A DNA stretch of 20,124 bases. Origin: Planctomycetota bacterium. GTDB lineage: Bacteria; Planctomycetota; SZUA-567; H5-PLA8. Under the pieces are notes generated by a model. It saw only the letters and a list, made by a program, of their open reading frames with translations, did no database searches and had not been told where the DNA came from. Position 1 is the stretch's first letter. Each line of letters begins with the position of its first letter. The stretch is taken from the NCBI GenBank assembly GCA_045863855.1, contig BTVV01000115.1, positions 1 through 20,124 on the forward strand, in the 5' to 3' direction. Below are positions 1-19,677 of the stretch, piece by piece. A program made the position numbers and the translations under genes.

Positions 1-1043
1 ATTGGGCGCTGGACCTCTGGACGCGCCTGCAAGACGAAGACGGCGGGGTGCATCACGGGATCGAAGCCACCAAGGACCCGCTGCCCGGCGATACGCCCGC
101 CACCGACCGGCTGCGCGAATTCGCTTACGCGAAAGACAGCACCGCCAGCTACTACTTCACTGCGATGGCCGCGCACGCCGCGGTGCTCTGGAAGCGCAAC
201 GGTAAAGCCGCCGAGTCCGAAGCCTTCTTGCAGCGTGCATTGAAAGCCTGGACGTGGGCGCAGGCACATCCCGAAACGGAAGCGCCGCGCCAACCCGGCG
301 AACGCGACCGACTCGTGCACGCCGCCGCGGCGCTCTTCCGAGCTACCGGCGAAGCGCGCTTCGACGAGGTTTTTCGCAAGCAGGTGATTACTTCGGAGCA
401 TCCGGCCGCGCCGCCGTTCGAATACCGCAAGCACGATCACTTGGCCGGCATGCAGCAGTATCTTGAAGCTGAAAAGGGCGACGCGGAGTTAAAGAAAAAG
501 ATTCGCGCTTCGATGGAGGGACTGGCCGGTTACTGGAAAACCTGCGCCGAGACGACCACCTACCGCTACATGCGCAGTTCCCACGCCCCCAACAGTTGGG
601 GCACCGGCGGCTTGCCGGTCTGGACGTACTTCCCGGCCGTCGCCGCGCACGCGAGCGAAAACGCGGAACTTAAGGCGGGCCTGACTTCTTGGATCCTCTT
701 CACCAACGACTTCTCGCTGGGCTGCCATCCGATGAATCTGGTTTTCACAGTGGGCATCGGCAAGCGCTACGTCCACCATGCCTTCAGCTACCTGGACATC
801 AACAGCCCCGAGGGCGTGGTCGCGGGCTTGCAGTGCGAGGGCCCCAGCCGCGGCAAGCCGGCGGGTTCGCCGGGCGGCAAGAGCATGGGCGACTGGCCCG
901 CGATGAGCTTTTATCCGCACGGGCCGTGGCCGGAACTGTACTGTTTCTCCGAAGAGGCTTCGCCCGGCATGGCCGAGGGGGTGGTGATCAATCAGGCGCG
1001 CACGGCGCTGGCGTACGGACTGTTCCTCCCGCCGGCCAAGTGA
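1..1043 (+). CDS. Glycoside hydrolase family 9 protein (cellulase-like (alpha/alpha)6 catalytic domain), 5'-truncated by the window edge
   Basis: The frame is open from base 3 (WALDLWTRLQDEDGGVHHGIE...), so the GTG at 48 is internal. GH9-like segments: 'W.LD...RLQDEDGGV', 'FLQRALKAWTWAQAHP', 'AAAALFRATGE..F', 'LGCHPMNLVFTVGIG' and the C-terminal 'EGVVINQA..ALAYG' carrying the probable catalytic Glu. Stop TGA at 1041-1043. Confidence 0.8.
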   Translation, partial: WALDLWTRLQDEDGGVHHGIEATKDPLPGDTPATDRLREFAYAKDSTASYYFTAMAAHAAVLWKRNGKAAESEAFLQRALKAWTWAQAHPETEAPRQPGERDRLVHAAAALFRATGEARFDEVFRKQVITSEHPAAPPFEYRKHDHLAGMQQYLEAEKGDAELKKKIRASMEGLAGYWKTCAETTTYRYMRSSHAPNSWGTGGLPVWTYFPAVAAHASENAELKAGLTSWILFTNDFSLGCHPMNLVFTVGIGKRYVHHAFSYLDINSPEGVVAGLQCEGPSRGKPAGSPGGKSMGDWPAMSFYPHGPWPELYCFSEEASPGMAEGVVINQARTALAYGLFLPPAK

Positions 1044-5527: not shown

Positions 5528-8500
5528 TTACCGGCGATACAGCGTACTTGTTCCGGTACGCACCAGGCGCACTGTGGTTTGAGCCGTATGCCCGCCGGTG
5601 GTCTGGCGTACGAACAGGTCCACGCTGAACGGATCGGTGGCGGGGTTGGTCACCGGGTCGATGCCCAAGTCGCCGTCGGCGAGCCAGTGGGTCATCAGGC
5701 GGGCTGTCCATTTGGTCAGGTTGTATTGAGCGCTGGAAACACCGTCGAGCGGAATCGCCGCGCCGCCGGGCGTCTTGGTGGGACGCTTATAGGTGAAAGC
5801 CGTGCCAGAATTCACGAAGACCGAGCCGCCCACCGAGCCGTCGCCCACCGTCTCCACGAACGTGCCGAGGATCAGTTCCACGCCGTTCGCACTTGGATTG
5901 AAGCTCGTGCCGTTAGGCGGGCGATGCAGGACATCGAGCAGCAATCGCTGCTGCAAGCCCAGGGTTTTGTGCAAACGCTGCTGAAGCTGCGCTTTCGAGA
6001 CGACGAAAAGCCCTTCGGGCAAGTCCGAGCCGGACTTGCCGTAGCTGAACTGGCCGGTTCCCGTCGAATCGACCTTGGCCAATTTATACAGCGTAGTAAC
6101 CGCAGCGGTCGTTTGCCACGCGCCAATCTCGAGGCCCACCACCACCTCCACCGCATCGTTGGGGTGGGGGATCAGGTTGTCGGCGCCTAGCGGCGCCAGC
6201 GCGTTATCCAAGTCCAGCGCCTTCCCGGTGAGCGTGAATTTGCCGGTGGCGAGCGTCAGGGTGAAGCGCGCGCTGGCCGGAGCATTCAGGAAGTCCCAAA
6301 TCACGGTCTTGCCGTTGTTCGAGGCCGGCGTACCGAAGTCGAACTCCGCGCCTTGCAGCGAAAAGGTCAGGCTCGCGCCCGCGAAGCTCGTCACGTTTAC
6401 GCCCGCCGCTTCCAGGTCCGCGAAGTTCAGGATGCCTTGCGCCAGGAGCGTATCGACGTTTTCGCCCAAGCCTTTGGCGCGCTTGGAATAGAACAACTGG
6501 TAGCGCAGCTTGGAGAGTCCCAGCGGCAGGCGTCCGGTGGTGTCCTGCGCTTCGAAGTTCTGATAACCGAGTTGCGCATAGCCGGCGGCGTCGAAGGTGC
6601 CGGGATCGGGCTCGCCGCCGGTCGCGGTCACGTCGAGCCCCAGCGCGTTGAAGATCAACCGATCGCCGGGGCTGGCCGGCGGCGCGGGATTGCCGCCATC
6701 GAGGTCGATTTCCGTCGTGGTCGAAAGCCCGGCGGTGACCGTGTCGTCGCCGGGGCCGGTGGTCAGGTCCACGGTTGCCAGCGGGACCGTACCGCCGAAG
6801 CCGAGCGACAAATCAGGGCCGAGCGTCACGGTGTCTTCGCTCAGTCCGTTGCCGGCCGTTAGATCCAGCGTCAGCGCGCCTACCTCCGTGAAAGTAAGCG
6901 TGGCGAAGTTCACGCCGCCGTCAGAGCCGCTGAGCCGGCCCCATCCGGCTTGCGGATTGGCCAGCGTCATCGTGGTGGAACCGTTGGGCGGATCGAAAGT
7001 AAGCGATTGCATGCCGGTGACGAGCAACGGCTGATCAACGCCGCTGAAGACGATCTCCCGCTGCGTAAAACTCAGCGTTCCCGAACCGGTGGTGCTTGCA
7101 TGAGGCGCGTACGTCGGGGCCACGACGCCGTCGCCCAGCACCTCCAGCGTATCGCCCGCCCCGCCGTTGGGTCCGCCGGCGTAATCGATGGCGCCCATCA
7201 GGGGAATGGGGTTGCTCCCACCGTTCCAATCGATGCGCAGAAGATCATTCCCCGCACCTAGTTCGACTTCGATGTTATCGACAAAGGTAAAATTGGTGAA
7301 AAAGGTCCAGAGCGTACCGTTGAAATCGATCTTGAGCGCGATCCCGGTCTGGGTGATGACGACGGTGTCGTCGTCGCCCGCTTCGTCTCCGACGCTGACC
7401 AAATCCTGAGCGGGGTCGTAGCGCACGGGGGGCGGGTCGGTAAGCGTAACGAATAACTCGTAGAAGCCGGTATCGGTGCTGAAATCCTTCACCACGATGT
7501 AATAGGTGCCGTCGGCCGGAATGATTCGGTTCGCCAGCAACGAATCGGTTCCGTAACCCGTTTCACCGGTTTCAATGGTGGACCAGCCGTATCTGATATC
7601 GTCATTGCTCGCGATTTCAGTCGTGCCGTCCGTATCGAGCAACCGCACGAAGCAGTCGATGGGGTCATCGTAGGAATCCAAGGATTGAGAAATCTGGTCG
7701 CTGATGGTATTGATTAGAATCAGTTGTCCGGCGCGCGCGGTAAAGCGGTAGTAGTCCAGTTCGCCGTTGCTCGCGATCTCGCCCAGCACGTTCACCGACC
7801 GCGTGCCCGTCAACGCCGACGGCGGATCGTCTCCGTCCAGCCCCAAGTCCTGGGCCGTGCCCGCAGTACCGTGCGCGCCGGCGGTCTCGCTGAGGCTGGC
7901 CGGCGTACTGGCGGTCAATCCGCTGGAGTACGCCAGCTTGGCTCGCGAAAGCGAACCGAACGTGCGGACGGCCTCACGCGCGGCTTCGCCCAAGCCGGTG
8001 TTCGACGTGGCCATGATATGCACGTTCTGGATTTCGCCCGTATCGTCGGGGTCCACGATCCGCGGGTCGCCGTACGGATCGTAATGTTGTAAGCCGAGGT
8101 TATGCCCCAGTTCATGCGCCGCGGTGCTTGAAAGGCCGCGCGTAAGCTGCGAAAGCTGAAGCGCGCGGTTCGTGCCACCGGTGAACTCATCCAGGATAAA
8201 AACGAATTCCTCAGGAAAGACATAGCCCAAGTCCGTGCCGCTTTGGTTTCGAAAATCGGGGAAGCCCATCGCGATGCCCAGCGTGCCCGCTCCGGTGGGA
8301 AGGATGGTCGTGCGCGGCGTTCCGAAATCGAGCGTCTCGAAATCGCCCACGGGTAAATCCTGCGTAAACGTAACCGTGTAGGCCGCGTAGGCCTCTTCGA
8401 GCTGGCTTTCCACATCGTCCTGAAGCTGAGTGCGCTCGGCGAGGCTGAAATCGTCCACGCCCGCGCCGCCGGCCAACTCGGTCAATCGCGCCGCGAAGCT

Positions 8501-8791
8501 GGTGAAATCGAGGTACACGGTGATCGGGCTGCCGGGTGCCGCGCGCTTGCCCACACTGCGCGAGTCCACCAGCGGCTTGGGCTTGCGCTGCCCCATGGGA
8601 TCGACCGCGTAGAGTCGCGTGCTGTCTCCCGCGCCATGCAGGCAATGCCAGCATCCGCGCGGATGCTCCGTAAACGCCTGCCGCAGCGTACGTGGGGGCG
8701 TAATCGTCTCACGGGCCTGGGAGGCCGCAAGCGCGCTACCCCAAACCAGCAGACAACTCAGGATCGCGAAAGCAGTCCTTCGAGGTCCCAT
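5528..8791 (-). CDS. Large secreted metzincin Zn-metalloprotease with PPC domain, acidic Gly/Asp/Thr-rich beta repeats and a tandem C-terminal domain
   Basis: Signal peptide from ATG 8791 (MGPRRTAFAILSCLLVWGSALAA). HELGHNLGLQH (HExxHxxGxxH) at 8116-8084 with a HIMAT Met-turn. PPC-like 'ELDYYRFTARAGQ...LLDTDGTTEIASNDD...ADGTYYIVV' at about 7785-7450. 'LGAGND' and 'TGPGDDTV' repeats. C-terminal ~335 aa resembles that of 15040-18573. Confidence 0.85.
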   Translation of the reverse strand: MGPRRTAFAILSCLLVWGSALAASQARETITPPRTLRQAFTEHPRGCWHCLHGAGDSTRLYAVDPMGQRKPKPLVDSRSVGKRAAPGSPITVYLDFTSFAARLTELAGGAGVDDFSLAERTQLQDDVESQLEEAYAAYTVTFTQDLPVGDFETLDFGTPRTTILPTGAGTLGIAMGFPDFRNQSGTDLGYVFPEEFVFILDEFTGGTNRALQLSQLTRGLSSTAAHELGHNLGLQHYDPYGDPRIVDPDDTGEIQNVHIMATSNTGLGEAAREAVRTFGSLSRAKLAYSSGLTASTPASLSETAGAHGTAGTAQDLGLDGDDPPSALTGTRSVNVLGEIASNGELDYYRFTARAGQLILINTISDQISQSLDSYDDPIDCFVRLLDTDGTTEIASNDDIRYGWSTIETGETGYGTDSLLANRIIPADGTYYIVVKDFSTDTGFYELFVTLTDPPPVRYDPAQDLVSVGDEAGDDDTVVITQTGIALKIDFNGTLWTFFTNFTFVDNIEVELGAGNDLLRIDWNGGSNPIPLMGAIDYAGGPNGGAGDTLEVLGDGVVAPTYAPHASTTGSGTLSFTQREIVFSGVDQPLLVTGMQSLTFDPPNGSTTMTLANPQAGWGRLSGSDGGVNFATLTFTEVGALTLDLTAGNGLSEDTVTLGPDLSLGFGGTVPLATVDLTTGPGDDTVTAGLSTTTEIDLDGGNPAPPASPGDRLIFNALGLDVTATGGEPDPGTFDAAGYAQLGYQNFEAQDTTGRLPLGLSKLRYQLFYSKRAKGLGENVDTLLAQGILNFADLEAAGVNVTSFAGASLTFSLQGAEFDFGTPASNNGKTVIWDFLNAPASARFTLTLATGKFTLTGKALDLDNALAPLGADNLIPHPNDAVEVVVGLEIGAWQTTAAVTTLYKLAKVDSTGTGQFSYGKSGSDLPEGLFVVSKAQLQQRLHKTLGLQQRLLLDVLHRPPNGTSFNPSANGVELILGTFVETVGDGSVGGSVFVNSGTAFTYKRPTKTPGGAAIPLDGVSSAQYNLTKWTARLMTHWLADGDLGIDPVTNPATDPFSVDLFVRQTTGGHTAQTTVRLVRTGTSTLYRR

Positions 8792-8848
8792 GCCGACCGA
8801 GCTTCCCGGGCGATGCGCGTCGAATCTCGCGCCGAAGCCTGAAAGGGA

Positions 8849-8877
8849 GGAATACAACCAAGGCTACTTTAGCTCAA
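8849..8877 (-). promoter_or_regulatory. Sigma70-like promoter candidate for the metalloprotease gene
   Basis: Minus strand TTGAGC-N17-TATTCC, about 57 nt upstream of ATG 8791. Confidence 0.4.
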
Positions 8878-9000
8878 TAGACCGCACGGAACAATCCGAA
8901 GCGGACCTGAAATTGACGCACCAGTGCGGTATGAACGCGGAATATCTGCTCACTGATTGTACATGCTGTTTTCAAGAGAAGGTTTGCGGAGGAACTGCGC

Positions 9001-9579
9001 GTGCGATTTACGATCGGTTTGGCATTACTAGCGCTGGGAAGTTTGGTCTTCAGCGGTTGCGGTTCGCCGTCCGCGCCAAAGGGTTCGACGGATGTGCCGG
9101 TTCCGCCCGTCAAAGCGGCGGAAGCAACGGCAGACGGGCCGAACGTGGATTTGAAACCGGTATTGGCGGCAGGATTGATCGACGCGCAAGGTCAGAGCGT
9201 CTCGGCCGATGCGTACCAAGGCAAGTTGATCGGGCTGTACTTTTCAGCTCACTGGTGCCCGCCGTGCAAGGTCTTCACGCCCAAGCTCGTCGCCTTGCGT
9301 GACGCGCATGCCGACCGGTTCGAGGTGCTGTTCGTGAGCGCCGACAACAGTGCGGAAGAGATGGCCGGGTACATGCAGGAAGCGCAGATGAAATGGCCCG
9401 CCGTGAAGTTCGACGCCCCCGCGCGGATGAAGATCGCGGCCGATCTGGGCATCGAGTCGATTCCCACGCTGATCGTGCTCAAGCCGGACGGACAGATCAT
9501 CACCCGCGAGGGCTACAACGAGGTGGATCGCCAAGGCGCCGGCGCGCTGACGGCGTGGCAGTCGGCCGCCGGAAAGTAA
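9001..9579 (+). CDS. Nucleoredoxin/tryparedoxin-like thioredoxin-fold lipoprotein (WCPPC)
   Basis: GTG start with GGAGG upstream. Signal peptide with lipobox FSGC. 'LIGLYFSAHWCPPCKVFTPKL', 'FEVLFVSAD', 'GIESIPTLIVLKPDGQIITREG'. Confidence 0.9.
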   Translation: MRFTIGLALLALGSLVFSGCGSPSAPKGSTDVPVPPVKAAEATADGPNVDLKPVLAAGLIDAQGQSVSADAYQGKLIGLYFSAHWCPPCKVFTPKLVALRDAHADRFEVLFVSADNSAEEMAGYMQEAQMKWPAVKFDAPARMKIAADLGIESIPTLIVLKPDGQIITREGYNEVDRQGAGALTAWQSAAGK

Positions 9580-9589
9580 GGCTCGACTT

Positions 9590-10555
9590 TTAGCGCTCGG
9601 TTACGTTCTCCGCCCACCGGTTCGTCATCCCGCTCGACTGATGCGTCTTGCGCAGCTTGTGGAAAACCGCGGGCTCGGTGACGACCTCGTTCGGCCGCGC
9701 TTGGCTGCGGACGAGGAAATCGGCTTCCGGCGGATAGCACGCGATCGGGACGCCGTTTTTGCCGTCGGCCACATCCTCGTTCGGCAGGCGCGTGATCTTC
9801 GCGTTCGTCGGCAGCGCGGCGCTCTGGTAGCGCAGGTCCATGCTCCAGCGGACGCGATCCGTCTTGTTCTCGAAGCTCGCGTGCGGCGTGCGGTTGTGAA
9901 GCAGCAACACGCCGCCTTTGCGCACCGGCACGCACGTCGGCTGCCCGCCGGGTAGATTTTCCTCGACGATGATCAGATACGGCTTGTTCGTGCGGCGATG
10001 GTGCGGCACTACGCCGCCGCGGTGCGCCTTGGGGAGCACCCACAGGCAGCCGTTTTCCTCGTTCGCATCCACCAGCGGGAGCCAGACGGTCAGGACCGTG
10101 GCCTTATCGCAATAGGGCTCCATGTAGCCGCTGTCCTGGTGCCACGGCACGGCGCTGTACTCGTGCTGCGGAATCTTGGGGCGCAGCCGATAGACGCTGC
10201 TGGCGATGATTTCCGGGCCGCAGAACTGTTCGGCCACATCCAGCAGCCGCGGATGCGTGATCAGGTGGAAGAAGGCCGGCCCGGCCAGCGTGCCGTTCCA
10301 TATCGAACGCGCGACTTCCGGCGTCTCGAGGCTGATGGCCGCCAAGCGGCGCTCGAAATCCAGCTCTGCGTAGTCGCGGCTGAGCTTGCCTTCGGCCACC
10401 AGTTCGCGCGAGCGGCGGTCGACTTCCGCGGCCACCTCGTCGATGACCGGTTGCAGGTCGGCCGCGCTAAATACATCGTCGACGACCACGTATCCTTCTT
10501 CTTTAAACTGGGTCATCTGGGCGGCGGTGAGCAACGAGCAGGCGGCGCTTGACAT
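9590..10555 (-). CDS. Phytanoyl-CoA dioxygenase (PhyH) family Fe(II)/2-oxoglutarate dioxygenase
   Basis: 'LTAAQMTQFKEEGYVVVDDVFS', PWHQDSGY (HxD), 'TVWLPLVDANEENGCLWVLP', distal His in TPHASFEN and RWSMDLRY. Start at ATG 10555 with GGAG upstream. The ORF-track extension to 11116 overlaps the AraC gene. Confidence 0.9.
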   Translation of the reverse strand: MSSAACSLLTAAQMTQFKEEGYVVVDDVFSAADLQPVIDEVAAEVDRRSRELVAEGKLSRDYAELDFERRLAAISLETPEVARSIWNGTLAGPAFFHLITHPRLLDVAEQFCGPEIIASSVYRLRPKIPQHEYSAVPWHQDSGYMEPYCDKATVLTVWLPLVDANEENGCLWVLPKAHRGGVVPHHRRTNKPYLIIVEENLPGGQPTCVPVRKGGVLLLHNRTPHASFENKTDRVRWSMDLRYQSAALPTNAKITRLPNEDVADGKNGVPIACYPPEADFLVRSQARPNEVVTEPAVFHKLRKTHQSSGMTNRWAENVTER

Positions 10556-10717
10556 GCGAGTCTCCGGTGGTCTATTTTCCTGCTCCAATTCCGCCGATTC
10601 AAAAGCGGGCTTGGAGCGCTTGGTTGCGGCGGCTCTCGACTCCGCCTCGTTCCAGCCAGATAGGCTCATTTTCCCCTGTGCAGCACCCGGTTCGCAATAG
10701 CCCTCGCTCACCATAAG

Positions 10718-10732
10718 TGGTATAAATTCACC
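10718..10732 (+). promoter_or_regulatory. Extended -10 promoter candidate (TGgTATAAA) directly before the AraC start codon
   Basis: TG at 10718-10719, TATAAA at 10721-10726, ATG at 10733. No SD sequence in between. Confidence 0.5.
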
Positions 10733-11530
10733 ATGAATTGGGAAACCGTCCGCTTTGCCATGCCCCTCGACGAGCCCCCCCGGTTGCGCACCATCGCCGT
10801 CGCTCAGCATCCGGTCGGCCTCTGGCCGTACAAACTCAACTTCTGGTGTCTGCACTTCTTTGCAACGCCGGGCGACCTGAGCATCGACGGCGTGGAATTC
10901 CCCATCCGGCCCGGTTGCGCCAGCATCACGCCACGGCAGGCACAACTCGTGTACCGATTCGACGTACGCCCGCGCTACGTCTATGCGCACTACGATCTGC
11001 CGGCCGAAAGCCCCAGTGCTCCGCTTACGCCGGTCCTGGCCATGCATGACTTGGGCGGCGACTTCTCCGCCTATTGGAGCGCCATGGAGGAAGCTGTCGG
11101 CGCGTTTTCGACCCAACGCCGCCGCGCCGAAGCGCGCTTGTGGGAACTGCTGTGGAAGTTATCGGAGCGCCGCGCACAGGACGAAGCGGGCGGGACGCGT
11201 GCCGAGGGCCATCCGGCCATGCGACAGGCGCGGGAGCACATCGAGCGAAACCTGCACCAACCGTTGAGCGTTGCGAACCTGGCGGCGCGCGTGGGGCTGA
11301 GCCACAACCACCTGACGCGGCTTTTTCGCGAACAGACCGGGGGGACCGTGGTGAGTTACATTCGTGCGCGGCGTCTGGAGCGCGCGCGCCATCTGCTCCT
11401 GCATACCTCGCAGCCGATCAAAGCCATCGCCTCCGAAGTGGGCCTGCCGGATCTGCATCAGTTCAATAAAGTCGTCCGCGCCGCGCTGGGCGCGAGCCCC
11501 CGGGCGCTTCGCGCCGGGAAGCCCGATTAA
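10733..11530 (+). CDS. AraC/XylS family transcriptional regulator
   Basis: N-terminal cupin-like sensor domain and C-terminal double HTH: 'LSVANLAARVGLSHNHLTRLFREQTG...RLERARHLLLHTSQPIKAIASEVGLPDLHQFNKVVRAALGASPRALR'. Confidence 0.93.
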   Translation: MNWETVRFAMPLDEPPRLRTIAVAQHPVGLWPYKLNFWCLHFFATPGDLSIDGVEFPIRPGCASITPRQAQLVYRFDVRPRYVYAHYDLPAESPSAPLTPVLAMHDLGGDFSAYWSAMEEAVGAFSTQRRRAEARLWELLWKLSERRAQDEAGGTRAEGHPAMRQAREHIERNLHQPLSVANLAARVGLSHNHLTRLFREQTGGTVVSYIRARRLERARHLLLHTSQPIKAIASEVGLPDLHQFNKVVRAALGASPRALRAGKPD

Positions 11531-11679
11531 ACCGCTGAGACGCAGAGGGTGCAGAGAACGGCAACGGATATCGTGAAAACGAAACATAAGACGGCGCGCG
11601 ATTCAAGCCGCGCTGCGCTTCCCAAGCCGTCCCCCCGAAGTGTGTTTGTCGTTCTCTGCGTGCTCCGCGACTCCGCGGT
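11531..11679. repeat. 149 bp intergenic inverted-repeat element (REP/MITE-like) with 34 bp imperfect arms
   Basis: Left arm 11531-11564 is ACCGCTGAGACGCAGAGGGTGCAGAGAACGGCAA. The reverse complement of right arm 11646-11679 is ACCGCGGAGTCGCGGAGCACGCAGAGAACGACAA, 27/34 identical. Both arms have an internal 9-nt period. Confidence 0.75.
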
Positions 11680-11688
11680 GAATGCGTC

Positions 11689-12594
11689 CTACGCCATCCG
11701 CCCCGCATCGTACGACCGCGTGCCGCAGACCATCAGCCCGCGCTGGTTCTCTTTCTTGACCGCGTCTTTCTTCTTCTCGGCTGCGGCCCGGCTCTCGGTC
11801 GTCGTGGCGCTGACCACCACGTAATCGTCGGCCGCGCGATAGCGATGAATGAAGACCGGCCGCGCGCTCGTGCTGTGGTTTTCCTTGCTCCCGTGAATCG
11901 TCTTTACGTGGAAGAAGATCGCGTCGCCGGCCTTCCCGCAGATCGGCAGGGCGCGTTCCCAAGGCCATTCCTCGTGTTCCAGCCCCAGGTGCGAGAACGT
12001 ATCGACATGCTTCAGCACGCCCAGCTTGTGGCTTCCGGGAACGACATGCAGCGCGCCGTTCTCGAGGTTCGTGTCGACGACGTAGCCCAGCATGGCCAGC
12101 GGCCCTTCGTAGCGGTGCTCGAAATACGCCGCGTCCTGGTGCAGGTGCTTGGGGTGCCCGCCGACGGGTTCTTTGTAGAGGCACTGTCCATTGATGAAGA
12201 GTTCCACGTTCTCGCCCAGCACCGCGCGCGCCAGATCGACCGTCTTGGGGTCGAAGGCGCTGCGGAAGAAGGTCGCGCTGGTGTAGTAATTGAAGCCCAG
12301 CACCATGATCTGCTGCGGGCGCTTGAAGTGGGCCGGGGCGGGGAGGAAGAGCGTCCCGTTGGGCGTCGTCCAGCCTTCGGTGATCTTCTTCGCTTCGCCC
12401 AGCAGCGCGATCGATTCCTGCGCGCAGGCCTCGATCTCTTCGCGCAATTTCGCGACGTACGGCTTCATCAGCCCGCGCACCACCAGCGCGCCGTATTCGG
12501 CGTAGATCTTCGCCGCGCGTGCGGGATCCAGATCCTCGGCATGGATTTCGATCTGTTCCACCGAGACCTGCGGCAAGTCCAAGGCGACGCTCAT
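11689..12594 (-). CDS. Phytanoyl-CoA dioxygenase (PhyH) family Fe(II)/2-oxoglutarate dioxygenase
   Basis: HLHQDAAYF (HxD), 'DTNLENGALHVVPGSHK', 'KAGDAIFFHVKTIHGSKENHS..ARP'. Start at ATG 12594 with AAGGAG SD. Confidence 0.9.
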   Translation of the reverse strand: MSVALDLPQVSVEQIEIHAEDLDPARAAKIYAEYGALVVRGLMKPYVAKLREEIEACAQESIALLGEAKKITEGWTTPNGTLFLPAPAHFKRPQQIMVLGFNYYTSATFFRSAFDPKTVDLARAVLGENVELFINGQCLYKEPVGGHPKHLHQDAAYFEHRYEGPLAMLGYVVDTNLENGALHVVPGSHKLGVLKHVDTFSHLGLEHEEWPWERALPICGKAGDAIFFHVKTIHGSKENHSTSARPVFIHRYRAADDYVVVSATTTESRAAAEKKKDAVKKENQRGLMVCGTRSYDAGRMA

Positions 12595-12874
12595 GAGTCG
12601 GCTCCTTTGAAGGTTCGACGTCCGTTTCGCCACGCTTCGGACACGACGCCTCCGTCGGGTCGCCCAAGGGCGCCCGTCTGTGGCTGCTTCGATGTCCTTG
12701 AAGCCCTGTCCGTACGCGGTCCAAGCCCTTTTTCAACGGGCTGCTGGCGACCTCAGTCGTACAGGCTCGATGCGTGTTCGATCCGCGGGAACTCTACAAC
12801 TCCAATCCCGTTCGAACCATGGATGCGGCATAGGGAGTGGATGGATTTTTGAAGCGCTGGGAGCCTGCCGCAGT

Positions 12875-12910
12875 AAAAGAAAACGGCGCCAAGCCTTCGC
12901 TTGGCGCCGT
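12875..12910 (-). terminator. Intrinsic terminator downstream of the DUF3352-like gene
   Basis: Minus strand: 12 bp perfect stem ACGGCGCCAAGC-GAAG-GCTTGGCGCCGT followed by TTTCTTTT. Confidence 0.88.
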
Positions 12911-12943
12911 AGCATTCACGTTCTTTCCGTCGCCCTTCAGCGC

Positions 12944-14818
12944 TTACTTCTGCTCCGCGTTCTCGCCGCCCAAGCGCGGGCCAAACGTGGCCAGGACCGC
13001 CGCGAACGCGGCCACCGGCGGAGCGACGACTTCCAGCGAAGGCAGGGGGCTGCGGCTGGTCATCACTACGCCCTTTTCGCTGGCTTCCACCACCGCCAAG
13101 GCCGGGAAGAGGTGCTTCGTGACCGCTTCGGGCGCGGGGAGCAGATTCAGGTCCAGCCCCAAGCCCTTGAGCATCGCGGACGGCGCGATGAATTTCAGCG
13201 CCGTGGCGCCCACGTTAAACGCGCCCGCGTACCACTGGCCCCAATCGACGTAGACGAACAGGCTGCCCAGCGAGCCGCCGGTGCCTTTGAGCGCCTCCTG
13301 AAAGCGCGCCGTGCCGGCCAGTCCGGGGTCTTTCAAGTTCTTGAGCGCGGCCTTGAGGATCAGCATGTCCATCGCGACCACCAGACGGTCGGCGGTCACG
13401 ACATACTTGGCTTCGGTGCCCGTTCCGCCTTGGGCGGCGCGGACGTAGCGGACTTTGCGCCCTTCGTAGTCGATCTCCTGCAGCGCGACCTGGACGCCGC
13501 CTTCGGCGTTGCGCGCGGCCACCGAGCGCTTCAAGACCTGCACCAGCAGTTCCTCGGACTTCGCGGCGTCCTTTACCGAAAGGCTTACCACCAGCGTATT
13601 CCCTGCGCCCAGCGTGGGACTCTCGGGATCCTGGTAGCTGGCGACGACCAAGTCGTTCCCGTACGCCTCGGCCATTTCTTTGCTCAGGTCGCGCCCGTCG
13701 GCCTTGGCCTGTTCCCAGACCTTGCTCATCCGTTCGCGCGCTTGCGCGTCGCCGCCGCCCATCGCGTTGCGCAGCAGTCGGCTGAGGTATTCGGGCTTCG
13801 CCTTCAGCCCGATCGCGAACGGGGCGTGTGGCGGGCAGATCTTCAGGGACTCCGGCGAGAGCGGCTGTGCGTCGAGCGCCGCGAGCAGCCCCGCACGCCC
13901 ATCCTTGCTCATGAACGCCGCGCGTGACGCGAAGGCCGGCCCGTCCAGGCGCATCGACCACGCCACCGCGTGCAGGTCTTCCACGCCCAGGAAATCGAGC
14001 GTCTGCTTAAGGCGTCCGTTCTCGAGGTCTTTCTGTGCGCCAACCATCTCGCGCAGCGCCGCGACGTCCAGGTACGCGCCCATCGGCTCGGCCCCGGTCA
14101 GCCCGCAGCCCTTGAACGCCGGAGCGGCCGCCAGCTTGTTTGGCAACAGCCCGCCGATTCCGTCGACGATCTGTTTGCACAGGTCCGAGTCGGTCGTGAA
14201 GATCAGGTGCTTGCCGTACTCGGTGATCGTGAAGCTGTAGTGTTCGGTCGGGACCACCAGGAGCTTCGCCGTCTGATAGTCCTGCTGCTGCACGACCTTG
14301 AAGAGCAGCTTGTCCTGCAGGATCTGGGCCAGCGTCAGGATGTTCCCGACGTTCTGGCTGCGCATGATCAACGCCGTCGCCGGCGGTTTGACGGCGCCTT
14401 GCGCATCCTTCGCGCCGCGGCAGACGGCCACCGTCACCGGGCCGGGCGCGACGTCGTGCAGCCAGTTCATGATCGTGGCTACGACTTGGGACACATCGTT
14501 TCCGCCGGCAGGAACCGGGTCGGCCGGCGCCGCGGCCGGGTCGGCCATCATTTCGCGCAGCTTCGCGAGCGGACCGGCGAGGAACGCCTGCACCTCGGGC
14601 TCCCCGAAGATTTTGGACACGCTGGTCTGATTCCAGTCGTTCGCCCACTGGCTCCAGGTGCCGAATCGCACCACCAGCACCGTGCTGTCGGGGAGCATCT
14701 CCCCGGCGCTGGGCGGCACATCTTCCGCCGCGCGAACCGCCGATACCGCGCAGGCCGCCCAAAGCAGGCACGCAGCGATACGCCTAGAGCCGTACGGTTG
14801 TTTATAGGAAATAGCCAA
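12944..14818 (-). CDS. Exported hypothetical protein, DUF3352-like
   Basis: TTG start with GGAGG SD. Signal peptide ending in AVRA. Internally duplicated architecture ('MLPDSTVLVV...LAAAPAFK...GAYLDVAAL' and 'ICPPHAPFAIG...LAGTARFQEAL...LFVYVDW') and a hydrophobic C-terminal segment. The family call is by resemblance only. Confidence 0.7.
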   Translation of the reverse strand: MAISYKQPYGSRRIAACLLWAACAVSAVRAAEDVPPSAGEMLPDSTVLVVRFGTWSQWANDWNQTSVSKIFGEPEVQAFLAGPLAKLREMMADPAAAPADPVPAGGNDVSQVVATIMNWLHDVAPGPVTVAVCRGAKDAQGAVKPPATALIMRSQNVGNILTLAQILQDKLLFKVVQQQDYQTAKLLVVPTEHYSFTITEYGKHLIFTTDSDLCKQIVDGIGGLLPNKLAAAPAFKGCGLTGAEPMGAYLDVAALREMVGAQKDLENGRLKQTLDFLGVEDLHAVAWSMRLDGPAFASRAAFMSKDGRAGLLAALDAQPLSPESLKICPPHAPFAIGLKAKPEYLSRLLRNAMGGGDAQARERMSKVWEQAKADGRDLSKEMAEAYGNDLVVASYQDPESPTLGAGNTLVVSLSVKDAAKSEELLVQVLKRSVAARNAEGGVQVALQEIDYEGRKVRYVRAAQGGTGTEAKYVVTADRLVVAMDMLILKAALKNLKDPGLAGTARFQEALKGTGGSLGSLFVYVDWGQWYAGAFNVGATALKFIAPSAMLKGLGLDLNLLPAPEAVTKHLFPALAVVEASEKGVVMTSRSPLPSLEVVAPPVAAFAAVLATFGPRLGGENAEQK

Positions 14819-14970
14819 GGAACATCCTCCAACTTGGGTGAACCGACCGGGTCAGGATACGCTTTTCCTCATACCCTTCAATGCCCGTAACGCACGGGCA
14901 AAGGCTTTCGAAGGGACGTTCGAGTCCGGCCCCTGCTTCAAGCTCAATGTGCAAGTGTAACCGCTGCCAA

Positions 14971-15005
14971 ATAAAAGCCCCCTCCCGATTGGGGAGGGGG
15001 CTTTA
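14971..15005. terminator. Intrinsic terminator downstream of the large surface protein gene
   Basis: 13 bp stem AAAGCCCCCTCCC / GGGAGGGGGCTTT. T-rich tail (TTTTATTT) on the minus strand, 35 nt after the TAA at 15040. Confidence 0.88.
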
Positions 15006-15039
15006 AGAAGGTATGGCAGTTGCAACGGTCGCCACGCCG

Positions 15040-18000
15040 TTACTTCAGTTTAATCTTCCAGGCTCTCTGGGTGGCCAGCGTGCGGAAGATGCGCGTATAC
15101 GCGCTCGCGTTGTAAGTGAAATCGGTGGCGGTTGGCATGTCCCTAAGGTCGAGGCGGAAACCGACGAAGACATCGGCCAGCACGCCCAATTCTTCGGCGC
15201 CCTTGCCCAGCTTCGCCAGCGGCAGGCCAATGCCCGGAGCACCGTCCGGCACCTTGAGCAACTTCAGCGTAAAGTCGCCGGTGAGCCGATTGATCTTGAA
15301 ACTCGTCACGAGGTCGCCCTTGACACCCTTATAGGTGATCGTAGAGGTCGAAACGATCAGCCTCTTGGTTGCTAAGGCGGCAGCCAGATCCAACGGCCCC
15401 GAGTCGAACTCGCCCACTTGGAAGCGGAACGACTTGCCGGTCAGGTCCGCGGGCAGGCTGATCAAATCGGTGGTCGTCACCGTTCCGCCAGGCTGCATCA
15501 AGCGTCCGGCCAGCGTCACCGTATGGAACGAGTCGACCATCAGGGTGATCTTGTTGTTGACCGCGACTTCCGTAAAGGTGGCCGTCTTGAAAGTCAGGAA
15601 GCCGGTGTCTTCTTCTCCGGTGCCTTTGTCGAAGTAGTTCCCCACGCCGCTCTGGTCGGGGCGGCCCGTGTACAGCACCACCGCCGTCGAATTACCGAAG
15701 TCGCTGGCGCCGACATCCAGGCCGAACTGGATCCGGCGTTTGCGCGAAGGATTGACGTACGTGCCATCCTCGTCGGTGATCAAGAAGCGGTGATTGGATC
15801 CACTTAGCCGGCCTTTGGCGATCTGGAACGTGAACGCTCCGGTAATGGGGTTGAGATCGAAGAACATGCGGTCTTCCGCAAGGCCGTCACTAGAGAGAAA
15901 ATCGCCTTGGTGATCGATGAAGAAGGTGGCCGTGAAAGGGCCGTCCACGGGCGCGTTATCGAAGACCCCGTTCCCGGGAGTGAGCGCTAAGCTGCCCAGG
16001 CTTACGGTCACCGCCTGCCCGGCCAATTCGTCGGGCAGCAATTGCCGGTCGAGCACGCCTTGTATCAGCACGGTGTCGTTGGGCGTCGATTGCGAGAAAT
16101 CCAGCGTGAACTGAATTCGATTGAGCGCCATGTTGCCGTTGAAATTAGCGGTCTCGGCGGGGAAGCCGGCGGCATCGACCTGAACGTCTGGCCCAATCGG
16201 TTCGGTGCCCAAGCCCGATACGATAGGCAGCACGTCCAGGCTGAGGTAAGAGCCGTCCTTAAGCGAGATGGAGGAGAAGAGCTTGCCCGTCTTGGCAATC
16301 TTGCGCGATGCGGTCTCCGTACCCACCGGCACCAGTACGGTTCCCCCGTCGCCGTAAAAGAGGCGCTGCTCGTTCACACCCGCTAAGCCCGACGAACCCG
16401 CGAAATCGAAATCCACGGTCGCATTCTGCTTGATGAAGACCGGGTCGCCGCCGGGCGAACTGGTATCCAACCGCGCCACCAGATCGTCGGTGGCATCCGG
16501 GTCGCCCTTCGTGTTGATGTAGCGGCCATCCACGGACAAACCGATATTCGGGACGAAGGTTCCGGATTCCAGCCAGACGGCGAGGAATCGGCTGGTGTCG
16601 CCATCGGGAGCCGTATTGAAGAAATCGGGGATCGCTGCGGCTATGGGATTGCGCCGCGGCGTCGTGTCGGCGTCGTCGATTTGGAAGGGCTCCTGGTCCA
16701 AATCGGTTCCGTTCAGGAGCAGTCGCTTACCCAAAAAGTGGTAGGCGGTGGTCGACGTGCGGAAGCTGTGAATCATGAACCACATCGGCCCCGTACCGCC
16801 GGCCGGAAGGGCCACGTTGGCCCCGAAGAAGGCGGTGGGGTAGGCGTCCTCTAGGGTCAGGCCGCTGGGCGCCAAGCCGAAGTTGGTGAAGACTGTGCCG
16901 TCGGAAGGGGTCACAAACCCGTCGTCGCGTACCAAGTGCCGGAATATGTTGGTCTCGCCGCGCTGGTCGTGCGACGAAAGAATATGCCATGTGTCGGTGG
17001 CGTCGTCCCAGCCGACCCCGATCGGGGCGCCGAAGCCTAAATCCAGACGGTTGTCGTTGAAAACGCTAATGCCTTGGGGATCCAGCAAAGCCCCGTTGGC
17101 GCCGCTGTCCTCGATTCGGATCACGCGCGTCTGCACCGGGCGCTCGTTGCTTTCGCGGAAGGTCAGAAGCGCCGTGTCGGCGGGGCCGGCAGTCAGGAAG
17201 AAGCCGTACTGATTGCGCACGGGTACGCTCGGGCCGGGGATGAGTTGAGGCGTCGAAGCCGTCCCGGCGTTCGTATCCACGAAGACGTACTTCATTTGTG
17301 TTCCAGTGCCGACCCGATCGTGGAAGACCACCACGTAGCGGTCCGGACCGATGGACGTGATCAGCGGAAGCTCGTTGGCAATCTTACCGCTGGTGATCGC
17401 GACGCCGATAAGCACCTGGGGATCGTCCACATCGCCGAAGTCGCGAATGCTCCCATTTTCTTCGATCACCGAACCGACAATGACATTCAGGGAAATGTCG
17501 ATCCAGATGGCCAGGAATTCGTCGCCGTCGCTGGCAACTTGGGTGCGCTGTGGGGCGATTCCCAAGGGCACTTCTCCGAACGCGGGTAATGTGAGTTGAA
17601 CTTCATTGGCCGAAACGCTGCCCCGCGAAATGACTTTCCCGCGCATGACGGGGACTTTGCGGTTGGCCAAGTCGTTGTACATGATGAACGCATGCGTATC
17701 AGTCGCCGCGATGCCGGGGCTCGTCGGGTCGGTGTCGCCCACGTTCGAAATCACGAACTGGTTCCCATCGAGGACAATGATCGGATCGATCGTCACCGGG
17801 TACGCCGCATCGGCCAGCCAGCGTCCGTCCAAGGCATAGGCGATCCGGTTTTCCGCGGCTTCCCATGTCGGTTCGACCGTGATTTCCTGTCCGCCGGCAT
17901 CGCGAGCGAGCATGCGGCCCACACGCATCGCCAGACTGCCCGTGCGGTCCTGGAAGTACACGCCGCCCGAGGCTTCCGCCGCCGGCCGCGCCAACAAGCC

Positions 18001-18573
18001 CGGCGTATCCAGCTTGGCCTGGAAGGTCAGATCGCCCGAGCCCGGCGGAAGTGCTGGAAGGTCCCACAGCACTTCGACGCCGTCAGGCAGCAAGCGCAGG
18101 CGCTCGGCCATATGCGCGCCGCGCTCGAAGCGCACTTCGCGTTCTCCCGCAGCCAGCTTGATCTCCGTGGCGGGCTTGGAATCGGTAACGGAATACAGAG
18201 CCGCTTCGCCGTGCCGAATCGACTCGAGCGTCCAGACGATCCCGCGCGCCTCCGTCGCCGGAACCGTGTTCGCGTGATCCATGCGGCTGTAGACCGCGAC
18301 GCTGCGGTCGCCCTGTACCTCGACCGAGCGCTTGGCGTTTTCCGACTTAAAAGTGCCTGCCTCCGTCTGCTCAAACCGTCCCACCGCTTGCGCGCGAGCT
18401 TTCACCGCGACGGGCTGGACTTGGCTGGGCGATGCAGAAGCTTCGAGGAGCGGTTGGGAAGGTGCTTTAGGTTCCAGACCAACCGTTTGGTCTGTTTGCG
18501 AGGCGTGCTCAATAGCCACCCAGCCCCCTAACCCAAGCAGGACGAGTGCAAGACCTAGATTGAACTTCCGCAT
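15040..18573 (-). CDS. Large secreted/surface protein: N-terminal beta domain ending in YPVTIDP, propeller-like repeats, degenerate PKD domain and tandem C-terminal domain
   Basis: ATG 18573 with AGGGAGG SD. N-terminal hydrophobic signal/anchor MRKFNLGLALVLLGLGGWVAI. 'WLADAAYPVTIDP' at about 17800. Blade-like repeats (VASDGDEFLAIW, DRYVVVF, SRFLAVW). PKD-like 'TVDFDFAGSSG...FYGDG' at about 16482-16214. No catalytic motif seen. Confidence 0.8.
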   Translation of the reverse strand: MRKFNLGLALVLLGLGGWVAIEHASQTDQTVGLEPKAPSQPLLEASASPSQVQPVAVKARAQAVGRFEQTEAGTFKSENAKRSVEVQGDRSVAVYSRMDHANTVPATEARGIVWTLESIRHGEAALYSVTDSKPATEIKLAAGEREVRFERGAHMAERLRLLPDGVEVLWDLPALPPGSGDLTFQAKLDTPGLLARPAAEASGGVYFQDRTGSLAMRVGRMLARDAGGQEITVEPTWEAAENRIAYALDGRWLADAAYPVTIDPIIVLDGNQFVISNVGDTDPTSPGIAATDTHAFIMYNDLANRKVPVMRGKVISRGSVSANEVQLTLPAFGEVPLGIAPQRTQVASDGDEFLAIWIDISLNVIVGSVIEENGSIRDFGDVDDPQVLIGVAITSGKIANELPLITSIGPDRYVVVFHDRVGTGTQMKYVFVDTNAGTASTPQLIPGPSVPVRNQYGFFLTAGPADTALLTFRESNERPVQTRVIRIEDSGANGALLDPQGISVFNDNRLDLGFGAPIGVGWDDATDTWHILSSHDQRGETNIFRHLVRDDGFVTPSDGTVFTNFGLAPSGLTLEDAYPTAFFGANVALPAGGTGPMWFMIHSFRTSTTAYHFLGKRLLLNGTDLDQEPFQIDDADTTPRRNPIAAAIPDFFNTAPDGDTSRFLAVWLESGTFVPNIGLSVDGRYINTKGDPDATDDLVARLDTSSPGGDPVFIKQNATVDFDFAGSSGLAGVNEQRLFYGDGGTVLVPVGTETASRKIAKTGKLFSSISLKDGSYLSLDVLPIVSGLGTEPIGPDVQVDAAGFPAETANFNGNMALNRIQFTLDFSQSTPNDTVLIQGVLDRQLLPDELAGQAVTVSLGSLALTPGNGVFDNAPVDGPFTATFFIDHQGDFLSSDGLAEDRMFFDLNPITGAFTFQIAKGRLSGSNHRFLITDEDGTYVNPSRKRRIQFGLDVGASDFGNSTAVVLYTGRPDQSGVGNYFDKGTGEEDTGFLTFKTATFTEVAVNNKITLMVDSFHTVTLAGRLMQPGGTVTTTDLISLPADLTGKSFRFQVGEFDSGPLDLAAALATKRLIVSTSTITYKGVKGDLVTSFKINRLTGDFTLKLLKVPDGAPGIGLPLAKLGKGAEELGVLADVFVGFRLDLRDMPTATDFTYNASAYTRIFRTLATQRAWKIKLK

Positions 18574-18661
18574 GTCAACAGCCTCCCTTTGGTGCAACCA
18601 TGCCCCGCGCTACGCCCCTGAGTACGCCTTTGACTTGGTCCTGACTGAACGAAGAAGGGTG

Positions 18662-18705: not shown

Positions 18706-19626
18706 TTATTGGGGGGGCGGTTCTATTCCGAGAAGTCCTTGATTTTCATCTACTTGTCCATAGTACGCGCAAGTGCGTAACGCGGTTCGAGACCGCACTT
18801 TGGCGGCCATGGCATCAATTTCTTGGGCGCTGAGGCTGGATACGATTCCATATGCCGGTGGGCGCGCTACGGTATAGATTTGCACAAGGTGAATTTGTGC
18901 GCCGCCAGCCAGCAGCGTTTCCAGGCGGCCGAGGTAGGCCTCGAATTCTTCGGCGCTGGGACCCGCGCCACGGAGCCGCATAAAGCAGCTCTGGATCACC
19001 AGCGAGCGTTCTTGACCGCAGGCCAGGATATTAGCCAGGACTCGCTCGAAAGGGAAATCGGTACCGTCCACCAAGCGGAAGTAGTCGGCGGTGCCGGCGT
19101 CGAGCTTGGCCCAGACTTCGCCACGGTGGGCGTCGAGATATCGCAGCCCTTCCTTTACGTCGGGCCGGTCGAGCCCCGTCGCGTTGGTGATCAGGACCAC
19201 CTTTGAGGCATCGAAGCCCAGTTCTTCTTTGATGGCGGTGCAGGCTTTCACGATCTGGCTGAAGTTCTTAAAGGTCGTGGGCTCGCCGTCTCCGCTAAAC
19301 GCCATATCGGTGACGATACGCTTTTCCTGGGGCAGGCCGGCGAATTCCGGCTCGCTCCAGAGGGCGCTTGCGGGCCGCAGGCCGCCCAGGACGGCGCGCA
19401 GTTCGGCTTCGAGCTTCGGCTGTCCGACGAAGAACTCGGCCGGAGCCTTGGAACGGTCCACCTGGCAGTAGATGCAGTCGAAGTTGCAGGCCTTGTCCGG
19501 GTTCAGATTGATGCCGACGGAAATTCCGCCGCTGCGCCGCGAGAGCACCGGGTAAACGTAGGTGAACGCGCGAAAAGTACGCGGGTGCGCGGATTCGCTG
19601 AGGGTGCGGTCTAGCGGGGGCTCCAT
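18706..19626 (-). CDS. Radical SAM protein (COG0731/Tyw1-like Fe-S oxidoreductase group), function unknown
   Basis: 'YVYPVLSRRSGGISVGINLNPDKACNFDCIYCQV' (CxxxCxxC), FSGDGEPT, LITNAT, WAKLDAGT, VQIYTVARPP. Start chosen at ATG 19626 because AAAGGA lies upstream; alternative ATGs at 19656/19659. Confidence 0.85.
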   Translation of the reverse strand: MEPPLDRTLSESAHPRTFRAFTYVYPVLSRRSGGISVGINLNPDKACNFDCIYCQVDRSKAPAEFFVGQPKLEAELRAVLGGLRPASALWSEPEFAGLPQEKRIVTDMAFSGDGEPTTFKNFSQIVKACTAIKEELGFDASKVVLITNATGLDRPDVKEGLRYLDAHRGEVWAKLDAGTADYFRLVDGTDFPFERVLANILACGQERSLVIQSCFMRLRGAGPSAEEFEAYLGRLETLLAGGAQIHLVQIYTVARPPAYGIVSSLSAQEIDAMAAKVRSRTALRTCAYYGQVDENQGLLGIEPPPQ

Positions 19627-19677
19627 CGGGCGGCCGTTCCTTTCCACGAACTTCATCATAACATGCACGCCCGCGCG

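Follow-up and report, generated by a model that had tools for sequence, protein, structure and literature searches.

The stretch of DNA analysed here (hereafter the window) comprises 20,124 nucleotides of contig BTVV01000115.1 from the Planctomycetota assembly GCA_045863855.1, referred to below as contig C115 of the host genome G000 (6.9 Mb, 94% complete). It encodes two large proteins with N-terminal export signals, a metzincin-like protease (gene A) and a surface protein (gene B), whose C-terminal regions had been noticed in a first-pass annotation to resemble each other. This locus raises the question of whether the two tails are homologous and, if so, what such a tail does on otherwise unrelated exported proteins. 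Both open reading frames (ORFs) were confirmed on the minus strand (A, 8791-5528; B, 18573-15040), and the tails start near nucleotides 6530 (A) and 16140 (B), in agreement with the annotation. Our analysis indicates that the tail is a real and uncatalogued module. The function that we favour, to which we give a little less than an even chance, is that the tail, which consists of tandem predicted beta-sandwiches of about 155 residues, is retained on the protein and docks it non-covalently at the cell surface.

A homologous and duplicated C-terminal tail

In a direct comparison by BLASTP, the tails of A and B matched over the first half only (24.3 bits, E = 0.004, 41 of 173 residues or 24% identical). 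The pairwise check with shuffling that had been proposed for these tails gave a Smith-Waterman score of 77 against 40 ± 6 for shuffled sequences, and none of 2000 shuffles reached 77 (z = 6); the N-terminal parts proved unrelated, as had been claimed, with a score of 50 against 50 ± 7. At the sequence level, the direct match is marginal, and the homology is settled by profiles. A profile of nine paralogous tails built without B recovered B at E = 1.4e-6 among 18,964 ORFs, and a profile of 109 tails (the 121 database tails minus 12 B-type tails, with the A tail among the 109) aligned residues 820-1182 of B to model positions 5-314 (93 bits, E = 1.4e-24 in a search space of 1e6). These profiles were confined to the tail; an unrestricted iterative search had drifted into the PKD repeats upstream, and word-based protein searches recovered only the query or one or two relatives. 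The 12 pairs of short blocks on which the resemblance had originally been based all lie in the same register when the alignments are read by eye.

The shared region had been described as a single domain of 335-365 residues. The sharing stands, but the region consists of two homologous units of about 155 residues each, making a doubled tail of about 320 residues, and a shorter tail of about 140-160 residues, found on other proteins, matches the first half of the doubled tail. The profile-profile comparison by HHalign related the single tail to unit 1 (99.1%, E = 2e-18) and to unit 2 (90.8%), and unit 1 to unit 2 (94.5%, E = 8e-8), against 0.3-1.7% for reversed profiles, 0.3-5.2% for 12 block-shuffled profiles and 0.1-0.3% for a PKD profile. 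On the minus strand, unit 1 of A, homologous to the stand-alone single tail, occupies 6035-6526 (unit-1 profile, E = 1e-24), and unit 2, a diverged duplicate with a terminal Arg...aromatic-basic end, occupies 5531-6019 (unit-2 profile, E = 2e-24). Unit 1 of B lies at 15631-16140 (E = 7e-22), and unit 2 with its terminal Arg...Trp-basic motif lies at 15043-15609 (E = 8e-16).

Both tails are under purifying selection. In comparison with the same-genus genome G002, the ratio of nonsynonymous to synonymous substitution rates (dN/dS) was 0.11 for the A tail (0.145 in unit 1 and 0.087 in unit 2) and 0.055 for the B tail (0.057 and 0.054), values equal to or below those of their own N-terminal parts. 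Where the second strand begins, an Asp is invariant in the 121 doubled tails, and several glycines are also conserved; near the end of the doubled tail stand an Arg (116 of 121) and a Trp (104 of 121), followed by basic residues. In its internal position, unit 1 has kept its conservation (Asp in 121 of 121, dN/dS 0.06-0.15). All 31 single units examined have a net positive charge (+1 to +17). Cys is missing from 59 of the 121 doubled tails, and no membrane helix was found: in the last 60 residues, a 19-residue hydropathy window exceeded 1.6 in 2 of the 121 doubled tails and in none of the 31 single tails.

Each unit is predicted to be a beta-sandwich. For the A tail, AlphaFold2 gave two all-beta lobes, at residues 1-162 and 172-330 of the model, with a predicted local distance difference test score (pLDDT) of 86.5 and a predicted template-modelling score (pTM) of 0.55, and because of this pTM the relative position of the lobes is uncertain. 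The single unit was modelled as a compact sandwich of about nine strands and one helix over 141 residues (pLDDT 96.8, pTM 0.88). From their homology, the tails of A and B would have equal folds.

The claim that the region belongs to no known family was borne out, since no convincing match was found in Pfam, NCBIfam or PDB. A sequence search of PDB with the tail profile gave no match at E ≤ 1; the best template-modelling score in Foldseek was 0.20 for the doubled model, and the single unit matched nothing there at E ≤ 0.001; and the best Z scores in the VIA fold search were 6.1 (doubled) and 6.5 (single), none reaching 8, where the lack of a fold match does not show a new fold. The top structural row of the single unit was the LEA_2 protein 1xo8 (Z 6.5, root-mean-square deviation 3.3, 111 aligned residues, 4% identity). 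LEA_2 (PF03168) was also matched in Pfam by 2 of 31 single and 2 of 40 doubled tails (E = 0.004-0.008 or weaker, below the cut-off), and an LEA_2 profile search over five relative genomes gave one sub-threshold match. These likenesses are what an ordinary accessory module, binding a substrate or carbohydrate or stabilising the protein in the manner of LEA_2 or Ig-like domains and expanded in this lineage with no addressing role, would have in its favour. However, a Z of 6.5 lies within the background quoted for such scores (7-8), and proteases, glycosidases and giant adhesins all carry the tail at their end. Substrate-binding modules usually stand at varied positions in proteins. We consider an ordinary module quite improbable, and the LEA_2/WHy proteins (PF03168; 1xo8 and the luminal domain of TMEM106B), which share these faint matches, at most distant fold relatives of the unit, given background-level scores and 4% identity.

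Carriers and distribution of the tail

The expectation that many proteins of this genome carry the tail was correct: 18 doubled and 15 single tails were found in G000 at E < 0.001 among 14,582 closed ORF tails, with the best reversed-tail control at E = 0.33, and in whole-ORF searches of G000 every match was terminal. As predicted for signal-peptide carriers, a hydrophobic N-terminal stretch scoring at least 1.85 was present in 27 of the 30 members whose 5' end is complete; under a similar but not identical rule, the background was 955 of 4181 long genes (about 23%). In the database, 298 proteins matched the doubled profile at E ≤ 0.001 among 1.84 billion representatives. The C-terminal position held here as well, 146 of the best 150 matches ending within 30 residues of the C-terminus. 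Within the same 150, a hydrophobic leader was found in 94 of the 118 Met-starting members that are more than tail-only fragments, and a PKD motif just upstream of the tail in 27.

The N-terminal cargo is as varied as had been supposed. It includes S8, M10 and S9-like hydrolases, GH113, GSDH propellers, beta-helices, DUF11, SdrD_B, Calx-beta, PKD, ice-binding domains and tandem-95 repeats, and in two G000 proteins the tail stands directly behind a choice-of-anchor Q domain. This surface-type, unrelated cargo and the anchor-like placement support a dock at the cell surface. Neither a non-significant pairwise match, nor an already known domain, nor a mainly internal or cytoplasmic occurrence, all of which the first-pass annotation had named as evidence that would count against its proposal, arose in our analysis. 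Two G000 tail ORFs without a clear leader (L038:5388-6596 on C6 and L007:5094-9284 on C3) resemble downstream parts of longer, possibly frameshifted genes.

The tail is restricted to a lineage, as had been inferred. Of the 62 class genomes searched, 16 matched the doubled profile and 17 the single profile, all in two families of one order. Single units number at least about 60 in several genomes, on ORFs of up to 14,311 residues; two of the single units in G010 lie in open frames of 14,311 (C10:219817) and 10,347 residues (C42:384929). Some genomes are poor in tails, with none in G009, G012 and G017 and one in G004. Across the phylum (401 genomes, five candidates scored per genome), 20 genomes matched, 13 of which are outside the class with 1-11 single-unit matches each. 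Genomes with only 1-6 copies are G004, G094, G122, G329 and G260.

Two carriers follow the tail closely within the family. Each of the family's 14 tail-rich genomes contains the central region of B (16201-17775), which was not found in tail-poor G004, G009 and G012. A small protein consisting of PKD and a doubled tail gave one strong match in each of seven tail-rich family genomes (26 genomes searched) and none in G004, G009 and G012. Since the genomes are kin and incomplete, this distribution pattern is not a statistical test and is only suggestive.

These two carriers, together with proteins that consist of little more than a signal peptide and a tail (P0048, P0052 and one on contig C134 of G000), might be blocks of a self-assembling surface layer, forming a lattice with which the other cargo co-assembles by means of its tail. 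The existence of such near-stand-alone forms, the co-occurrence of the two carriers with the tail and the RNA-derived contigs that cover the B region would fit a lattice. On the other hand, stand-alone forms occur rarely and not every genome yielded one, the B region was not found in the tail-positive genomes G018 and G019 of the sister family (80% and 61% complete), contigs cannot show the high expression needed of a lattice subunit, and the structural matches to FlaF, archaellin and Sap domains are at background level (Z 5.0-5.4). We regard a lattice as improbable. The protein on C134 (L020:5249-5836) has a signal peptide and one diverged single unit only, and is conserved in G002.

Proposed docking, a possible secretion signal and the search for a partner

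In the docking that we favour, the cargo would be exported through Sec by its N-terminal leader, and the folded protein would then take a general route across the outer membrane, most likely a secretin channel. Outside, the basic beta-sandwich could bind an anionic envelope component (lipopolysaccharide or capsule) or a surface receptor, and doubling may tighten the binding, or unit 2 with its conserved Arg...Trp-basic end may serve as a second address. B and the small PKD-plus-tail protein are inherited core users of the tail, and A, which was seen only within the genus, is a recent, genus-level cargo. We favour a retained dock because unit 1 is conserved when it is no longer terminal, the single tails are basic, some genomes have only very few copies and the search for a dedicated partner found none.

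The alternative that has to be weighed most carefully, possible in our view but on balance doubtful, is that an as yet undiscovered translocon or shuttle in the outer membrane reads the tail as a secretion signal, in the manner of type IX secretion (T9SS) tails, with the single and doubled forms as two classes that may be cleaved after export. The terminal position of 146 of the best 150 database matches and the conservation of the extreme C-terminus in doubled tails speak for it, as does the fact that the single and doubled classes are always found together; T9SS is likewise described as having two tail classes with separate shuttles (PMC12618676). Relatives that are poor in tails also have low PKD counts (3-11 matches vs 119 in G003), as if the whole exported repertoire used one pathway, and in the PKD proteins of these relatives no diverged tail was found in 16 stretches, seven of which end before the stop.

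The search for T9SS components in G000, however, argues against a secretion signal. PorV (NF033709) had no match in G000, while the control rang in Bacteroides thetaiotaomicron. SprA, PorP, GldN and TIGR04183 also had no match in G000, although for these the control genomes were silent as well. The surroundings of the tail genes point the same way: when 512 crudely called genes from 53 loci were clustered, no recurrent machinery or partner gene appeared beside the tails, and only local synteny and housekeeping neighbours were seen. Three of 22 candidate outer-membrane barrels were profiled, and none was retained as a partner. A Slam-like TPR barrel occurs in 5 of 18 tail-positive genomes and in tail-poor G004, and ShlB/TpsB occurs in 2 of 18 tail-positive and 2 tail-poor genomes, so that neither tracks the tail. 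An orphan barrel tracks it only partly: it occurs in 11 of 18 tail-positive genomes and in none of six tail-poor ones, yet tail-rich G007 and G010 are without it. The orphan barrel has its own conserved cluster (L164:6076-14982 on C7 of G000) with a lipoprotein of about 1450 residues (LVIVD and faint cytochrome matches) and a divergent HbpS-like protein; barrel and lipoprotein are adjacent in eight of eight loci from two classes. The gene of the TPR and beta-barrel protein (L155:3860-5569 on C32 of G000, minus strand), Slam-like in layout and patchy in the family, lies upstream of genes that by eye are extracytoplasmic function (ECF)-sigma-like and FecR-like, and the FecR-like product ends in short Pro-Asp-Lys-rich repeats.

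Secretins, the route supposed above, gave five matches in G000, none above the GspD or PilQ cut-off among the four scanned, and were present in five of five relatives, in keeping with that route. Two large secretin genes (1050 and 949 residues) stand in tandem on C16 of G000 (L115:11906-17954), and similar tandem pairs occur in G003, G012 and G017. The first-pass annotation had proposed a candidate sorting or surface-anchoring system; the genomic traits of the tail module hold up, but no translocon, sortase or receptor beside the tail or tracking it was found. A complex prediction for the single unit with the tail of the conserved PKD-plus-double protein scored 0.00, which we take as no verdict and use neither way.

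Several observations weigh against a retained dock. The near all-or-none pattern within one family (dozens of copies vs 0-1) fits a translocation signal equally, as does the strict terminal position combined with the conserved extreme C-terminus. The charge of doubled tails is only weakly positive (median +2 and +3 per half, n = 110), and a basic character is described for T9SS tails as well (PMC6851124). Secretins occur in four tail-poor genomes too, giving no specific link to the tail, and the genomes with few copies could perhaps hold non-functional transferred genes.

Comparison with known systems places the tail close to, and yet apart from, the T9SS C-terminal domains. The type A domain (TIGR04183/PF18962) is described as an Ig-like sandwich of seven strands that PorV and SprA read, and type B tails (TIGR04131) as needing PorP/SprF shuttles (PMC12618676). 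Like these, the tail is a folded, beta-rich end of many unrelated Sec-exported proteins, with two classes per genome and a basic end. Unlike them, its unit has about 140-160 residues, about nine predicted strands and a helix, and may be doubled; no hidden Markov model (HMM) match and no PorV were found. Neither TIGR04183/PF18962 nor TIGR04131 was found at E ≤ 1 in 15 doubled tails (NCBIfam) or 31 single tails (Pfam), or among the 25 families listed for 40 doubled tails (Pfam). We do not file the tail as a T9SS member because the HMM and PorV tests failed. A T9SS C-terminal domain was also absent from the listed fold-search rows, a listing that does not exclude such a match.

The basic terminal domain of Fibrobacter (FPm-1), as presented in PMC6851124, is likewise confined to its lineage, carries positive charge and sits at the C-terminus of exported enzymes, and it was at first discussed as anchoring them to the surface by an unknown mechanism; it has about 70 residues, overlaps TIGR04183 and is proposed to be a cleaved T9SS signal. 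The present tail is two to four times longer and does not match TIGR04183. The tripartite signals (LPXTG, PEP-CTERM, GlyGly-CTERM and MYXO-CTERM), described as combining a short motif with a membrane helix and a cluster of basic residues and as being cleaved by a sortase (bioRxiv 10.1101/2023.06.07.544157), resemble it in their C-terminal position, many cargoes per genome and basic end. The tail differs in being a predicted folded domain that lacks a membrane helix, and neither a signature motif nor an HMM match of these four signals was found in it. SLH, CWB2 and dockerin modules are likewise repeated or duplicated terminal modules on diverse exported proteins, and are small or helix-containing; the Solibacter C-terminal domain TIGR03437 is a similarly unexplained lineage-specific tail. 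In contrast to these, the present unit is a predicted all-beta sandwich with no Pfam or NCBIfam match; SLH, CWB2 and dockerin in particular were not matched in Pfam, and the tail models are nearly all beta. Beyond Planctomycetota, an Atlas row for Candidatus Binatota scored 0.89 with low recognition and serves only as a lead. As context, giant genes of Omnitrophota are described near type II-like secretion loci (bioRxiv 10.1101/2023.11.21.568195). In a literature search that left subscription journals and supplements outside, no paper on the tail domain or its doubled form was found, nor any on a planctomycete C-terminal targeting module.

Genes A and B and the surface of an uncultured order

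Gene A (5528-8791, minus strand; 1087 residues from the ATG used by the database record P0001) encodes a signal peptide, a metzincin-like protease, a pre-peptidase C-terminal (PPC) domain, an unassigned middle region and the doubled tail. The likely Sec signal peptide of about 26 residues lies at 8714-8791 (hydrophobicity 2.5 in an 11-residue Kyte-Doolittle window), and the metzincin zinc-binding motif region, in which the three-histidine motif is visible in the translation, lies at 8057-8149 with weak Pfam matches to Reprolysin_3 (E = 0.005) and Peptidase_M10 (E = 0.015), both below the cut-off. The PPC-like domain at 7490-7756 matched PF04151 at E = 0.02, and PF04151 is also found on the orthologue P0151. 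Orthologues of A occur in same-genus G002 and in G001 (P0151); the G001 gene (L023, C3:498303-499294) is interrupted within tail unit 1 by a change of frame, which is either an assembly error or a real break. RNA contig cover of A was patchy and uninformative on expression.

Gene B (15040-18573, minus strand; 1177 residues) encodes a hydrophobic leader, a DUF7948-like domain, a likely beta-propeller and the doubled tail. A Shine-Dalgarno-like purine run (18582-18588) lies 8 nucleotides before the ATG at 18573, and the leader (18496-18573, hydrophobicity 2.5) may be a signal peptide or an uncleaved signal anchor. The N-terminal domain (17776-18228) is common to P0153 (BLASTP, 32%, E = 2.5e-11); it had no Pfam match, and the Atlas lead to DUF7948 is at only 0.82. 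P0153 ends in a different two-cysteine C-terminal domain (the last ~130 residues), which is unrelated to the B tail and was not found in G000. Since the same N-terminal domain is carried with an unrelated tail, cargo and tail are exchangeable, and this likewise supports a dock. The region at 16201-17775 is probably the beta-propeller cargo; it had no Pfam match, and its Atlas neighbours were unnamed Myxococcota clusters (0.95) and FG-GAP and Kelch (0.83-0.85). A terminator-like hairpin after B (14978-14995, minus strand) came from a pattern scan that found two against 0.3 ± 0.8 in shuffles, a weak indication; RNA contig X8 ends at 14994. Contigs from RNA runs of relatives with about 91% identity (two studies) span the gene from 18632 to 15053 and from 18632 to 14994, so that their limits match those of B; such contigs carry no strand or level information, and DNA carry-over is possible.

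Downstream of B, a 624-residue signal-peptide protein (12944-14818, minus strand) had no Pfam or NCBIfam match, and separate RNA contigs cover it in two runs. The other genes of the window (3-1043, 9001-9579, 10386-12633 and 18706-19668) include a GH9-like fragment, a thioredoxin-like lipoprotein and a radical-SAM protein, and, by eye, an AraC-like regulator flanked by two phytanoyl-CoA-dioxygenase-like genes. None of these neighbours recurs beside tail genes outside the genus.

As a wider and more speculative proposal, which we put forward with low confidence, the single and doubled tails could be two address labels of an undescribed Planctomycetota outer-membrane sorting and display system, separate from both T9SS and sortases. 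Such a system would handle 30 to more than 60 proteins per genome, some as long as 14,000 residues, and B and the PKD-plus-double protein would be its conserved surface components. The display of large enzymes and adhesins on the planctomycete surface is poorly described. Many of the large proteins that this uncultured order exports bear the tail, in single and doubled classes, and three genomes of the same family have almost none, a contrast that makes the partner machinery findable by whole-genome profiling. The tail itself is a direct handle for reporter, binding and proteomic tests.

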